Assembly (NCBI RefSeq): GCF_056712565.1
Contig: NZ_CM160072.1
Length of the DNA stretch: 64,000 bases
Direction: 5' to 3' (one strand)
Made by a program: the position numbers. Shown here piece by piece: positions 57,001 to 63,000 of this stretch. Within the stretch, counting starts at the first letter, position 1; every line of letters begins with the position of its first letter.

Positions 57001-60000
57001 ATCACCTGAATCAGGTCATACGCTTCGAGATACTTAACGCCAAACACCAGCGAAATGAGCGGCTTGCCGACGATCAACACCGCGAGCGCCACCAGAATAC
57101 CGATTCCGCCCGCCAGTAAACCGGACTTCACGCCTAACAACCACGGTCTGGTGGTGCGTGGATCTAAACGCATCACCTCTGGATAAAAACTTTTGCCCAG
57201 TAAACCCGCTGGCGTTCCGGCGGCATCGAAGAATGTCATGGCGATTTTAAATAACCCGGCGGCAGCGGGTCCTAACACGATCCCCACCAACACTGTGCTG
57301 CACGAGTTACGCGCCGACCAGATGGAGTGGGCAATGTTGGTTGACCAGACAAAACTCCACGCGCCTTTAATGTGTCGGGCAGACTCAAACAGATTCAATT
57401 TGAAGGCGTTATGGATATTTCTGCGGCGTAATTCGCGCGCGGCAAACCACCAGTACATGGTGCCGCCAACCAGATTCGACACGTACCAGGCAATAACAAA
57501 ACCCGCAAAACCAAAGTCAAAATACCAGGCTACGACGCTCCCCGCTGCGCGCAGAAAAGGTTTCGTCGCCTGCTGTACAGCAATCAAATCAAAGCGATCT
57601 ACCGCACGCAGAATGCCGGTCGGCGTGGAGGAAGCCATTGAAGGAATGAGCGTGCAATAGAGCGCCGCCAGCCAAAAGCTTTGGTCATCCAGACCTAATG
57701 AATGGGAAAGGAATGGCAGTAAGGCAATGCCGCCGACAATCGCCACCGCGCCGCTGACGATATCCAGCGAGAAGGAAAATGAGACAACATTGCGAAATTG
57801 CTGCGGATCATTGTTGGTCAAAGCTGGCGTTCCGTACTGAACTACCAGCTGCCATGTCTGAAACTTAATAAAATCGCTGATCGACTTGGCGTACGATTGC
57901 ACAATTACCAGTACGCCAAACATGGCGGGCGTCATCCCTTTACCGGCACACGAGAGCGCCAACAGCCCCAGCAAAGCGCTCACAACATTACTGGAGCCTA
58001 ACCAGGCGCTATTGCGAATAATGGTGCGAAACGCGCCATCTGCAAACCAATGTTTGATGTTAAAAACCGCCAATTCAGCCTGACCTTATCGTTGATAGTA
58101 AAAAGTATCCCGCCAGCCTTAAGTTAAACTTCGGCGGTCAGAAACGATGGCAACCAGAGAAACCGCCTTCTGTGCCTGTTCCAGCACCTCGCTGTAAGGC
58201 GCTCTGGAATCAATCTCAAGAATTTTTGTGCCGTTATAGCCAATCGTCGACATAACACCGATTTTGTCCTGCAGCTCGGCATAGTCATGGTCAGGCTTGC
58301 GGGAGATGGCAGTATCAATATCAATCCCCAAGCGAATGATTAATTCAGGACGGTATTGCGCCATTTTTTGGTATAAACGCCGTTCACGCTGCGCCAGAAA
58401 CCTGCTGATTTTCCCGGTCGCACGTTCGACGCCAATCCCCGGTCCGTCATAATAAAAGCCCGAAATTTCAGCCTGCGGGAAGCGATCGCTGACCACCAGA
58501 ACGCCACTTTGCGCCAGTCGCTGAACCTTGCGCAGATTCGCCATTCTTCGCAGCGAGAAGCAGTACATAATCACCGCCGCCCATAGCGCCGGAGATTTGG
58601 TTTTCATGCTTTGGGTTTTCGAGGATTTGGCCGCCAGTCGCCGTTCGAGCCAGACACCAACCAACGGCAATCGTTTGATTTTGTCGCCGTCTTCGCCGGA
58701 GAGCAGCCCCAGATAGCGCCGCTCGGTTTGCCAGTGTTGTTGCAGCGATTTCACCAGGTCATTTGTCAGTGTGGATTTACCGGTGCCATCACACCCGACC
58801 ACCGCAATCAGCCCCGGAATGTAGTTGGGCTGCGGCGCGGTTGTACTCTTAACAGTTTGTGTTTGTAGTGCATCCATTCGTTTAATCATCCCCTATCCAT
58901 TTTGGTGATCAGGAAAGCGCGGCGTGAATTGCGCGTAGTGACGCTTGCAGAATTTCATCGGCTGGTTGCCGACCATCCAGTTCAAGGATCCTGGCGCCAT
59001 TGAATGTCAGTTGCGGCGTAACGGCGATTTTTTCCTGTAACGCTGCCAGTTGGTGGTCAGGTTTACGCGCAAACGCGGTTTGTTCATCAATGCCAAGACG
59101 AATCAACAATACAGGCAAATAAGACGCCATCCATTGGTACAGCTTCAGCTCACGCTGCCTTAACATTTTTATCCAACCGTTACCGCCCGTGGTTTTTGCC
59201 AATTGCGGGCCATCAAAGCGGAAACCCGGCACTTCAACCTGCGGGTAGCGGTCGGTGATGAGCAGATAGCCTTGCTGGTTTTTACACAACATTTTGCGAA
59301 ACTTGTACGCCCGCCAGCAGGAAAGCAGATAGATAACCAGCGCAGTAATATTGCCAGGCGGTGTTGAGGGCTTTTCGTGCACATGTGCCGCTTTACTTCG
59401 CAAATAACGCCCAAAAGGTGCGCCAATAACAGGTAGCTGTGAAATCCATTCGCCAATTCGCCCGGACGATTGCCCGAGATAAATGTGTTCTGTTGGCATT
59501 CTTGATGCCAGTTCATTTACCAGGCTTGCCGTGAGGGTCGATTTACCTGAACCATCACATCCTACAATGGCAATAACACGCACTGGCGTGGAATTAATTA
59601 TTGACATATTACGTTGATTCACGAAAAACCCGGCAGCAAATAATGTATTGAATATTACGTGGTCCGTGCTCAGAATATCCGTTCAACCTTATTGTGACAA
59701 TGGTTAATTGTGACATTGACCTGAATTACGCTTTCATCAAAAACATATTAACCAAATAAATATTTTGGATGGATATTTAAATTTAAGGATATATTCATGC
59801 AGTCAATAATACCTCCATTAATTGCCGTTATTGGTAGCGATGGTTCAGGCAAGTCAACGGTGTGTGAACATCTTATTACCGTTGTCGAAAAATATGGTGC
59901 TGCCGAAAGGGTTCATTTAGGAAAACAGGCCGGAAATGTCGGTCGTGCAGTGACAAAATTACCGTTGATGGGAAAATCCTTACATAAAACAATTGAACGA

Positions 60001-63000
60001 AATCAGGTAAAAACAGCAAAAAAATTGCCTGGACCAGTTCCGGCGCTGGTAATTACAGCGTTTGTCGCCCGTCGCTTACTGCGCTTTCGTCATATGCTTG
60101 CCTGTCGTCGTCGCGGGTTAATTGTTTTAACCGACCGTTATCCGCAGGACCAGATTCCTGGCGCTTATGATGGTACGGTGTTTCCGCCTAACGTTGAAGG
60201 TGGTCGTTTTGTCTCATGGCTGGCAAGTCAGGAACGTAAAGCATTTCACTGGATGGCGAGCCACAAGCCCGATCTGGTCATCAAACTCAATGTTGACCTT
60301 GAAGTTGCCTGCGCGCGTAAACCCGACCATAAACGGGAATCGCTGGCGAGGAAGATTGCCATAACGCCACAGTTAACCTTTGGTGGTGCACAACTGGTTG
60401 ATATCGACGCCAATCAGCCACTGGAAAAGGTGCTGGTTGATGCAGAAAAAGCGATTACGGATTTTATGACCGCGCGTGGTTATCACTAGTGAAAAATGGA
60501 AATGCCCGATCGCCAGGACCGGGCATTTTCAGGAAGGTTAAATCAACTGCAATGCTATCCAGTACAACCCACCAGAAAGAAAAATCGCCGCCGGTAAAGT
60601 AAATACCCACGCCATCAGGATGCTGGTTACCGTTTTACGCTGTAACCCACCGCCGTCCACCACCATCGTTCCTGCTACGGCAGATGAGAGTACGTGTGTT
60701 GTGGAGACGGGCATCCCAATATAACTGGCAAGGCCGATAGACACTGCCGCCGTCATTTGTGCCGCCATGCCTTGCGCATACGTCATGCCGCGCTTACCAA
60801 TCTTCTCACCGATGGTCATCGCTACACGACGCCAGCCAATCATGGTGCCGATGCCGAGCGCCAGTGCTACCGCCATGATGATCCATACCGGTGCGTACTC
60901 AATGGTGCTTAACATATCGCTGCGCAGTTTTTTCAGCAGGTTCTGGTCTTCTTTACTGACGCCTGGCAGTTTCGCCAGCTTCGCGGAGGTATCAGAGATG
61001 CACAGCATAATGCGGCGCAGCTGGCTGCGCTGACTCACGCTTAACGGCTCGTAACTTTCCATATTGCCTGGCAGCATCGTTTTAACGCGCGCAATCGCAT
61101 CAAAGGTATTTGCCGGATGACAGTGAAACTCCGTCACTTGCGCGCCATCAGTCGATGCCGCAGGCAATGGAGGTTCCATCGTAATCAACTTCTGCGGCAG
61201 TTCAGGATGCTGTTGCAGGTAGTGTTCGAAGTTGGTGACGGCATCGCGGGTACGGGTAATTTCATAGCCGGACGCATTCATATTGACGACAAACCCGGCG
61301 GGAGCAATCCCCACCAGCACCAGCATCACCAGACCAATTCCTTTCTGCCCGTCGTTCGCGCCGTGCGAAAACGCCACGCCCGCAGCGGAAACAATGAGGG
61401 CAATACGCGTCCAGAATGGCGGCTTACGTTTGCCTTTTTTCTTTTTGCGATCTTCAGGAATACGATGAATACGGTCACGCTTTTTCGTCCCACTCCAGAA
61501 ACGGCGTAGCAGAAAAATTAGCCCCCCCGCAATCACCAGCCCCACGATGGGAGAGACAATGAGTGAAGAGAAAATCTTGGTGACTTCGCGCAGGTTTAAC
61601 GCATCCATCACCGACGAGCCGGTTAACAGCGCGTTGGTTAAACCAATGCCGATAATCGCACCAATCAAAGTGTGCGAACTGGAGGCCGGTAAACCAAAGA
61701 ACCACGTTCCCAGGTTCCAGATAATCGCCGCCAGCAGCATGGAAAAGACCATCGCCAGACCGTGAGTTGACCCCATATTCAGCAACAAATCGGTTGGCAA
61801 CATATGGACGATGGCATAGGCAACGCTAAGCCCGCCAAGCAATACGCCAAAAAAGTTAAAAAATGCCGCCATGACCACAGCAAGCTGTGGTTGCATGGCA
61901 CGGGTATAAATAACGGTTGCCACCGCATTCGCCGTGTCATGAAAACCATTGATTGCTTCATAGAACAACACAAATGCCAGAGCAAGTAATAACAAAAGCC
62001 CCGTATATATATCAAGGCCAACAAATAAATTTAGCATATATTAGATTACGCCATTTTGAATTTACGAACGGAGGCATTATCAGTGACTTTCACGGCGTGG
62101 GCAAAGTGAAATATCATTTTTTAACGATAAAAAGCGTGTTATTTCTTGTGTATCAGACAATAAGCCTTCATTCAAAACCTTTAGAAATAATCAAAACACA
62201 GGTATTTCACTTGTTAATATATTCATATATAAAATGAATAAATATTGAAATATATAAATATTGAATATTTTGATTAATCCCCGTACTGATTATTCTTCAT
62301 AATCAGTACGGGGTTGCTACAACATGTATTACTCTTTCACCACAATTAACGGTTCAATATCACTCTCTTTTTTGATGACCAGTGATTCATCACCGCGCAA
62401 ACACGTCCCACCGTAGTTGCCGCCAACGGTGAAAGTACATACCTGAATGTATTTACCGTCCACTTTCGGCAAACACCACAGTTGCTGGTAAATATTTTTC
62501 TGTTCGGCAAATTTACCACTGGTTTTGTCCAGCACCTCTTCATGATGGCTGACCAGGTCAATGTTGCTACCACAGCGCCCGGCAATCGGTTTAACGGCAT
62601 AACCGGTTTTAACCAGCTCATCATTCACGGTGAAGTCAGTATCCAACAGATAACGATGGTGCGGGAACAGCGACCAGAGGATCGGCAGAATCGCTTTGTT
62701 GCCGGGGATCACCGTCCACAGCGGCTCAAAGACCAGCACTTCCGGGCGCAGCAATACGTCGATAAGACGCACTTCATTTTGCGGATGACCGGTCCGAATC
62801 GGCACTGCGGCAAATTCACGGTCGCTCACTTCGCGGATTTGATCAAATGCCGTTTCCCACGCCCAGGTTTTCCATACGCAGTTAACCTGTCGCCCTTCTC
62901 CATCAATCAGTTGCCCGGCAGCATCCCAACGCAGTTCCTCTAACCCGCGTAAAATACGCGTTTCAAAGCCTGCTTGTTGCAGCGCCTGCTCCATAAACTG

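Follow-up and report, generated by a model that had tools for sequence, protein, structure and literature searches.

The stretch analysed here, 64,000 nt of contig NZ_CM160072.1 (NCBI RefSeq assembly GCF_056712565.1) and hereafter called the window, carries three adjacent genes, yghR, yghS and yghT, which encode paralogous P-loop kinases of the thymidylate kinase (TMK) superfamily. Two or three such kinases, together with the flippase YghQ and a protein of 278 residues that we call Hyp278, make up a conserved envelope-lipid module, which in Escherichia coli is embedded in the ceramide/LptF2G2 locus. Sequence comparison leads us to propose, tentatively and at a little below an even chance, that YghR, YghS and YghT are ATP-dependent head-group kinases of this sphingolipid or envelope-lipid pathway, for which we infer a lipid substrate. 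About half of the weight of this proposal goes to phosphoanhydride chemistry, that is, the addition of phosphate to phosphate.

Pairwise BLASTP over about 217-221 residues gave 43% identity between YghR and YghS (E = 3e-62), 37% between YghS and YghT (E = 4e-54) and 34% between YghR and YghT (E = 1e-47). This likeness is far beyond chance and makes the three proteins clear paralogues, as the initial annotation had claimed. The near-identical Walker A motifs that it quoted (GCDGTGKST, GCDGSGKST and GSDGSGKST) are present exactly in that form. At the fold level, the proteins have the three-layer alpha/beta/alpha fold of nucleoside monophosphate (NMP) kinases, with thymidylate kinases as their nearest structural neighbours. 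Of the two kinds of fold that the annotation had put forward, the thymidylate-kinase-like one was thus recovered, and a lipid-kinase fold of the diacylglycerol (DAG) kinase or LpxK type was not. A profile of the kinase family matched TMK sequences at E = 5.7e-13, with the P-loop, the helix before the DRY motif, the DRY motif itself and the lid aligned. ST1543 was matched at E = 6e-5 over the P-loop only, and its structural match was at the same level as those of ordinary TMKs.

The Walker A motif G-x-D-G-x-G-K-[ST], the DRx motif and the lid arginine show 90% conservation or more, up to invariance, in alignments of 63 and 142 sequences and also inside the three clades (R, S and T) described below. 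In YghS numbering, the positions conserved to at least 90% both overall and per clade are G-x-D-G-x-G-K-S-T, R104, D124-R125-x-P127-Q128, D137, E158, R186-K-P-D-H190 and K198. The D-R pair of the DRx motif reaches 100% in all three clades, and YghR retains the P-loop, DRFPQ and RKPDH motifs. Because the catalytic motifs are kept in every clade, all three kinases look catalytically competent. They are also unusually basic (isoelectric point, pI, 9.7-9.9), which is consistent with an anionic membrane or phosphate ligand.

In RefSeq record NZ_CP033092.2, yghS and yghT are labelled 'dTMP kinase' and yghR is a hypothetical gene. The dTMP-kinase equivalog model TIGR00041 has a curated cut-off of 83.25 bits, which is not reached by the three kinases (32.8, 25.1 and 25.4 bits). 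Pfam Thymidylate_kin matches YghS at E = 0.0095, no Pfam match of YghS lies below 1e-3, and no curated family threshold of Pfam or NCBIfam is attained by any of the three. Since TIGR00041 scores of 25-33 bits are set against a cut-off of 83.25 and no Pfam match is significant, the profile evidence indicates that YghR, YghS and YghT are not dTMP kinases and that the RefSeq name is misleading. With canonical Tmk (TIGR00041/PF02223) they share the fold, the P-loop G-x-D-G-x-G-K-S-T, the DRY motif, the lid arginine and the profile match given above, but they carry about 20 extra residues before the DRY motif (estimated by eye), have a pI of about 9.8, are triplicated and lie among envelope-lipid genes. 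To our knowledge, the DGP and RKPDH motifs are not familiar from TMKs.

A profile search of 1.84 billion representative proteins returned 2175 relatives at E ≤ 1e-3, and a scan of one genome per GTDB species yielded 76 loci. When 142 kinase domains were placed in a neighbour-joining tree, with distant relatives of about 500 aa as the root, the R, S and T sequences formed three separate clades (bootstrap 98, 91 and 88 of 100, respectively), each with enterics plus other gamma-, beta-, delta- or alphaproteobacterial sequences. Because every clade spans enterics and other Proteobacteria, the tree identifies R, S and T as long-standing orthologue groups that go back to an ancient triplication, not to a recent tandem duplication. 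Homologues of yghT were found across Enterobacterales. Among the few clade-specific positions is the one that follows the conserved [Y/H]-L-G motif, where the R clade has L, the S clade Q and the T clade K; it lies in the part that aligns with the 'EPGGT' substrate loop of TMKs. The initial annotation had suggested sequential or alternative phosphorylation of a lipid intermediate; separate steps of either kind would fit an ancient, separately conserved set with catalytic motifs kept, while the lipid as their substrate is what we infer.

T-like and R-like kinases are fused into single proteins of 475-513 aa in Bombella and Saccharibacter (loci L064, L067, L070, L076 and L081, at about 9100-10700), and further natural fusions join S to R (P0121) and T to R (P0122). 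Such kinase-kinase fusions suggest that the paralogues act as a physical complex. The Bombella/Saccharibacter module, made up of the fused kinases, the gene of the CHAD-fold protein described below, yghQ and a His_Phos_1 gene, lies directly after gidA-gidB-parA-parB. Members of the distant clade (P0163-P0265) are proteins of about 500 aa in which the kinase domain is C-terminal and follows an N-terminal region of about 260 residues; this region had a weak Pfam match to NTP_transf_5 in one member and none in another. Its identity with Hyp278 was considered and rejected, given that weak match and sequences that are unlike by eye. In locus L005 (5721-9482), a relative of about 500 aa is followed by a second TMK-like gene inside a Wzx/Wzy/GT4/sulfotransferase polysaccharide cluster. 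P0219, also of the distant clade, fuses a MOP flippase, NTP_transf_5 and the kinase domain, and in P0253 the kinase domain is fused to an apparent GT4 glycosyltransferase. Apparent YghQ-Hyp278 fusions and long kinase fusions in Sphingomonas (L045, L061, L073) were discarded as artefacts of calling the longest open reading frame (ORF) in high-GC DNA, their N-terminal parts being unlike YghQ. Neighbour family f10, which is Arg/Ala-rich and comes from high-GC loci, looks like a similar artefact.

To survey the neighbourhood, ORFs were called in 85 loci, clustered and labelled with E. coli proteins, and those within 10 kb of the kinases were counted. Hyp278 is the commonest neighbour (49 of the 85 loci), followed by YghQ (45), Spt (26), CerR (25), AasR (24), a YtfJ-like protein (18, all enteric), LptF2 and YghO (17 each) and LptG2 (16). 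Other recurrent neighbours are an LmtA-like lipid phosphate O-methyltransferase (12 loci), PAP2 phosphatases of the LpxE type (10) and of the UppP/PgpB/LpxF type (7), a second type of MOP flippase (8), a His_Phos_1 phosphatase and a GT4 glycosyltransferase (6 each), an LpxO/OlsC-like hydroxylase (5) and a YegS/DAGK-type lipid kinase (4; L007, L008, L033 and L034). No PPX or PPK was present among the neighbour families found in at least four loci. The gene dgkA (DAGK_prokar) stands beside yghO in eight enteric loci and one metagenomic locus; it directly adjoins yghO and the ceramide genes in L002 (17090-17449) and also in L003, L022, L027, L039, L077, L079, L083 and L010. E. coli DgkA phosphorylates ceramide in vitro, and it could be a source of ceramide-1-phosphate.

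Most loci have two or three adjacent kinase paralogues. Within Enterobacterales, the spt block occupies at least three positions or orientations relative to yghT-yghS-yghR and remains next to them. Beyond the enterics, it is linked to the kinases in several arrangements in Luteibacter, Rhodocyclaceae, Methylotenera, two Pseudomonas and a betaproteobacterial metagenome-assembled genome, and the gene set recurs in beta-, gamma-, delta- and alphaproteobacteria. Because the set persists through these Enterobacterales arrangements and in other Proteobacteria, the association of kinases and lipid genes is no accident of E. coli gene order, and comparative genomics gives good support to a functional linkage between the kinases and the lipid locus. 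The link drawn earlier from adjacency in the window thus holds, but the tightest partners of the kinases are YghQ and the CHAD-fold protein and not the synthesis genes. Sphingomonadales and Acetobacteraceae conserve the unit kinase-kinase-YghQ-Hyp278, whose gene order matches that of E. coli. The taxa that bear the module are largely Sphingomonadales, Acetobacteraceae and Myxococcales, which are sphingolipid producers. A decayed locus is seen in Pseudomonas graminis (L004, 6031-10708), where a yghO-like gene and aasR stand with a cerR cut short to 139 aa and a single yghT-like gene; spt, the flippase and the other kinases are absent.

Hyp278 has no match in Pfam or NCBIfam, and a search of PDB sequences with its profile returned nothing. 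Its AlphaFold2 model, which is very confident (a pLDDT of 95.5), consists of two four-helix bundles, and CHAD structures are the best structural matches. The comparison covered the family PF05235 and the structures of RcCHAD (6qv5), CtCHAD (3e0s) and PptA (6rn5). When Pfam CHAD (PF05235) was run against 38 members of Hyp278, none of them matched at E ≤ 0.001 and one did so at 3.9e-3. According to the model, then, Hyp278 is a previously unrecognised CHAD-fold protein, which differs from the CHAD domain proteins in having no significant Pfam CHAD match and in being encoded with a flippase and lipid genes. Conserved in it are K85, R88, K92, H93, R95, H105, H193, R196, K197 and H237, candidate residues for a basic surface that might bind polyphosphate. 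CHAD domains are known as polyphosphate-binding modules (10.1101/567040).

The closest known system is the polyphosphate kinase PPK3 of the archaeon Sulfolobus acidocaldarius, which is formed by two thymidylate-kinase paralogues, the catalytic Saci_2019 and the regulatory Saci_2020 (rPPK3), in which the DRx arginine is lost (PMC12995831, 2026). The PPK3 operon also encodes a CHAD protein, a SixA-type His_Phos_1 phosphatase and PPX, and TMK paralogues with such neighbours are present in some bacteria (PMC12995831). The set of kinase pair, CHAD and His_Phos_1 seen here appears to mirror that operon: in the Ygh loci, too, TMK-superfamily paralogues are encoded together, with a CHAD-fold partner in 49 of 85 loci and His_Phos_1 in six. 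By analogy, this partner set points to phosphate-on-phosphate chemistry over plain hydroxyl phosphorylation of sphingoid bases. The two systems also differ. There is no obvious regulatory subunit, as no Ygh paralogue has a degenerate DRx motif; the Ygh module has a constant MOP flippase, ceramide genes, LptF2G2 and lipid phosphatases, and has no PPX among its recurrent neighbour families; and by sequence ST1543 stands no nearer to the Ygh family than ordinary TMKs do.

Taken together, these features would be consistent with the following scheme. On the cytoplasmic side of the inner membrane, the basic kinases would use ATP to phosphorylate a ceramide-derived lipid at its head group. The acceptor would most likely be already a phosphate, for instance that of ceramide-1-phosphate made by DgkA or a YegS/CpgB-type kinase, and a pyro- or oligophosphate head group would arise through the action of one paralogue after another, or of hetero-oligomers that they form. 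Hyp278 may bind this phosphate-rich group, YghQ may then flip the lipid, and LptF2G2 with LptB may extract it toward the outer membrane. A phosphate acceptor is suggested by the motifs of NMP-kinase type (the P-loop Asp/Lys, the DRx arginine clamp and the RKPDH of the lid), by the CHAD-fold partner of polyphosphate-binding type, by the presence in a number of loci of another lipid kinase, of the DAGK type or DgkA, and by the PAP2 phosphatases and phosphate methyltransferase among the neighbours. A more far-reaching form of the proposal, which we consider distinctly unlikely, is a lipid-anchored pyro-, oligo- or polyphosphate: the three TMK-like kinases would build a phosphate chain on a ceramide, the CHAD-fold protein would hold it, YghQ would flip the lipid, and LptF2G2 would bring it to the outer membrane.

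Several observations weigh against head-group kinases. The CHAD assignment of Hyp278 is made at the level of the fold, sequence methods giving at most one weak match in 38. The TMK fold is a nucleotide-kinase fold, and the invariant R104 aligns with the Arg of the 'FSANR' helix of TMKs, which contacts thymine in TMK structures; because of this alignment, a nucleotide-like ligand is conceivable. In many loci of Sphingomonadales and Acetobacteraceae, spt is absent from the 10 kb around the kinases, and a distant relative lies in an ordinary Wzx/Wzy polysaccharide cluster without sphingolipid genes, so that the acceptor of the family may be a lipid-linked glycan in general. We know of no report of pyro- or oligophosphate sphingolipids. 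The literature found does not document sphingolipid production by E. coli, lipidomics searches gave nothing usable, and a literature search returned no functional characterisation of yghR, yghS or yghT.

The kinases could instead be plain hydroxyl kinases that act on the C1-OH of ceramide, on a sphingoid base or on a head-group sugar, as functional analogues of CpgB and alternative isoenzymes. This is unlikely in our view. TMK-like kinases occur together with a YegS/DAGK-type lipid kinase in the four loci listed above and dgkA lies beside the ceramide genes in eight enteric loci, which suggests that the first phosphorylation is carried out by another enzyme. The motifs are of the TMK type (DRY, P-loop Asp) and not of the deoxynucleoside-kinase type as generally understood, and a CHAD-fold partner is hard to account for with a monophosphate. 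The same partner would be expected of a PPK3-like enzyme, a hetero-oligomeric polyphosphate kinase or polyphosphate-dependent nucleotide kinase working on soluble polyphosphate, with only an indirect link to lipids. This too we regard as improbable, given the absence of PPX and PPK from the recurrent neighbours, constant partners that are a membrane flippase and lipid enzymes, a family nearer to canonical TMKs than to ST1543 by the E values given above, and the fact that E. coli already has PPK1. Moreover, the DRx arginine is kept in all three clades, unlike in rPPK3 subunits (PMC12995831). Literature searches for a PPK-independent polyphosphate route in E. coli gave nothing usable.

Modification of an undecaprenyl-diphosphate-linked sugar or repeat unit before flipping by YghQ, with no specific tie to sphingolipids, would agree with YghQ being a Wzx-type MOP flippase, with the distant relatives in Wzx/Wzy/GT4/sulfotransferase clusters or fused to a MOP flippase or GT4, and with the GT4 genes alongside the module in six loci. 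It becomes quite improbable when one considers that Wzy, glycosyltransferases and initiating transferases are all missing from the E. coli locus and that spt, cerR and aasR accompany the close clade in 24-26 loci and LptF2G2 does so in 17. A role as NTPases without kinase activity, which would regulate YghQ or LptF2G2 or provide them with energy, might be read from the flippase-kinase-domain fusion and from the lack of a dedicated ATPase for LptF2G2 in the locus. We hold it to be very unlikely, since fold and motifs (DRx clamp, lid) mark the proteins as small-molecule kinases and set them apart from ABC or AAA ATPases, MOP flippases do not run on ATP, and the LptF2G2 of Caulobacter bind the housekeeping LptB. 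The least probable of the alternatives, and a very slight one, is that the proteins are genuine nucleotide kinases (dTMP, CMP or other NMP) that would provide the nucleotides with which head groups are activated. The 'dTMP kinase' label of yghS and yghT in RefSeq, the TMK fold and the conserved Arg of the 'FSANR' helix speak for it. It is opposed by scores far under the curated dTMP-kinase cut-off, three paralogues each conserved over a very long time, a locus in E. coli that has no nucleotidyltransferase, and the existence of a separate essential tmk in E. coli. In addition, TMK-annotated PPK3 subunits have no dTMPK activity (PMC12995831).

The head-group kinase reading can be compared with the anionic sphingolipid pathway of Caulobacter (CpgB, CpgA/C/D, the flippase CC_1166 and LptF2G2C2), which likewise combines ceramide genes, a MOP flippase, LptF/G paralogues and a kinase step leading to an anionic sphingolipid. 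The E. coli locus differs in having no CpgA-D and in having three TMK-fold kinases and a CHAD-fold protein. CpgB, the ceramide kinase of Caulobacter, has a DAG-kinase fold with a GGDG motif; homology of the Ygh kinases to it was considered and ruled out, as they have the TMK fold and no DAGK_cat match. In the supplementary gene descriptions retrieved for the Caulobacter locus, the only kinase is CC_1160, of the DAG-kinase type, and no TMK-like kinase is listed; nor does the literature consulted on that locus ascribe a TMK-like kinase or a CHAD protein to it. LpxK, the tetraacyldisaccharide 4'-kinase, is a functional analogue only, being a P-loop kinase that acts on a membrane precursor of an outer-membrane lipid.

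The lipid genes of the window belong to the ceramide/sphingolipid locus of E. coli (PMC9386255; bioRxiv 10.64898/2026.04.12.717747). Its five ceramide-synthesis genes were defined in Caulobacter and have already been listed for E. coli (PMC9386255), and the operon of strain UTI89 has been depicted (bioRxiv 10.64898/2026.04.12.717747). The Caulobacter homologues of LptF2 and LptG2 are required for sphingolipid transport and bind the housekeeping LptB (bioRxiv 10.64898/2026.04.12.717747); LptF2G2 is presumed to be the sphingolipid extractor in E. coli. The features of the locus are listed in Table 1.

Table 1. Genes and other features around yghR, yghS and yghT; positions are those of the window
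Feature	Position	Strand	Size	Remarks
yghO	47516-48658	minus		aca/ceramide-synthase-type acyltransferase gene (RefSeq; PMC9386255)
aasR	49062-50753	plus		Fatty acyl-AMP ligase; intact in window
cerR	50750-51664	plus		Ceramide synthesis gene (RefSeq; role PMC9386255)
acpR	51696-51944	plus		Ceramide synthesis gene (RefSeq; role PMC9386255)
spt	51944-53116	plus		Ceramide synthesis gene (RefSeq; role PMC9386255)
lptG2	53151-54230	minus		TIGR04407/TIGR04408 pair above cut-off; LptG paralogue
lptF2	54227-55297	minus		TIGR04407/TIGR04408 pair above cut-off; LptF paralogue
ytfJ-like gene	55328-55888	minus	186 aa	YtfJ family; predicted signal peptide
Hyp278 gene	55888-56724	minus	278 aa	Unannotated; predicted CHAD-fold helical protein
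yghQ	56724-58073	minus	449 aa	MOP/Wzx-type flippase; directly downstream of yghR
yghR	58119-58877	minus	252 aa	Length from RefSeq start; ORF and RefSeq coding sequence; R clade
yghS	58909-59622	minus	237 aa	GTG start; S clade
yghS/yghT divergent spacer	59623-59796		174 bp	Presumed promoters for both transcription units
yghT	59797-60489	plus	230 aa	Divergent paralogue; T clade
Hairpin	60500-60528		12-bp stem	Between convergent yghT and pitB; terminator scan
pitB	60538-62037	minus		Phosphate transporter gene (PitA family); convergent with yghT

Seven genes (yghS, yghR, yghQ, the Hyp278 gene, the ytfJ-like gene, lptF2 and lptG2) form an unbroken string on the minus strand. From yghS to lptG2, the junctions are 31 nt, 45 nt, two 1-nt overlaps, 30 nt and a 4-nt overlap, a spacing from which the string is predicted to be one operon. 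This agrees with the earlier grouping of yghR and yghS with the flippase and permeases, and yghT is divergent, as had been described. An alternative upstream ATG of yghR at 58889 would give a protein of 256 aa. The yghS/yghT spacer has a local GC of about 0.44, and the promoter scan placed one sigma-70-like site in it (minus strand, 59700-59672), not above chance. A weak FlhDC peak from systematic evolution of ligands by exponential enrichment (SELEX) has been recorded in the same spacer of K-12 (PMC9962212). Counts in the promoter and terminator scans were at chance level, except for the hairpin after yghT, which is probably a terminator shared with pitB. The latter gene directly adjoins yghT in Escherichia, Pseudocitrobacter, Hafnia and Citrobacter (L011-L014, L020) and not in other genera, and its adjacency may be coincidental.

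The YtfJ assignment follows from TIGR01626 (214 bits, above cut-off). YghQ matches the NCBIfam MOP flippase family and its orthologues match Pfam Polysacc_synt. RefSeq names lptF2 and lptG2 lptF and lptG ('LPS export ABC transporter permease'), and the equivalog cut-offs are exceeded. By context they are presumed to be second, sphingolipid-locus copies, which automatic annotation does not separate from the housekeeping pair. The window is 100% identical to E. coli ATCC 11775 (NZ_CP033092.2) over 58000-60600 and differs from it by two bases over 20 kb. At window position 49366 it has G where NZ_CP033092.2 has A, which makes a stop at codon 102 of aasR; the gene is flagged as a pseudogene in that record. 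The other difference is at 46642, in the glcD-glcC spacer.

In K-12 MG1655 (L087, NC_000913.3, 3130146-3132408), IS5 (insH9) separates yghO from a yghQ that is truncated at its 3' end. The genes aasR, cerR, acpR, spt, lptG2, lptF2, the ytfJ-like gene and hyp278 are missing, and yghR, yghS and yghT survive. An IS5-associated deletion has thus taken away the rest of the pathway, leaving the K-12 kinases in a dead pathway. For this reason phenotypes of the kinases are wanting in K-12, and K-12 knock-outs of yghR, yghS or yghT are probably uninformative. Of 5426 complete E. coli genomes, 4743 (87%) have yghRST and 4162 (about 77%) have the spt-lptF2G2 block; the intact locus is therefore the common state of the species. 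The lipid product of the E. coli locus is not reported in the literature found.

What is new here is an ancient, non-redundant kinase triad, its CHAD-fold partner, and a core of kinases, CHAD-fold protein and flippase that extends well beyond the enterics. An envelope-lipid pathway seems to have recruited a TMK-superfamily kinase triad together with a flippase and a CHAD-fold protein, and the head group of the E. coli sphingolipid has become testable. A phosphate-rich sphingolipid head group, if true, would give enterobacteria a route to an anionic sphingolipid without the Cpg enzymes of Caulobacter, would add a second type of P-loop lipid kinase beside LpxK, and would extend the PPK3 finding that thymidylate-kinase paralogues were recruited for phosphoanhydride chemistry. 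If the head group were a lipid-anchored phosphate chain, it would represent a new class of anionic outer-membrane lipid and would give E. coli and many other Proteobacteria a way to make membrane-associated phosphate polymers independently of PPK1.

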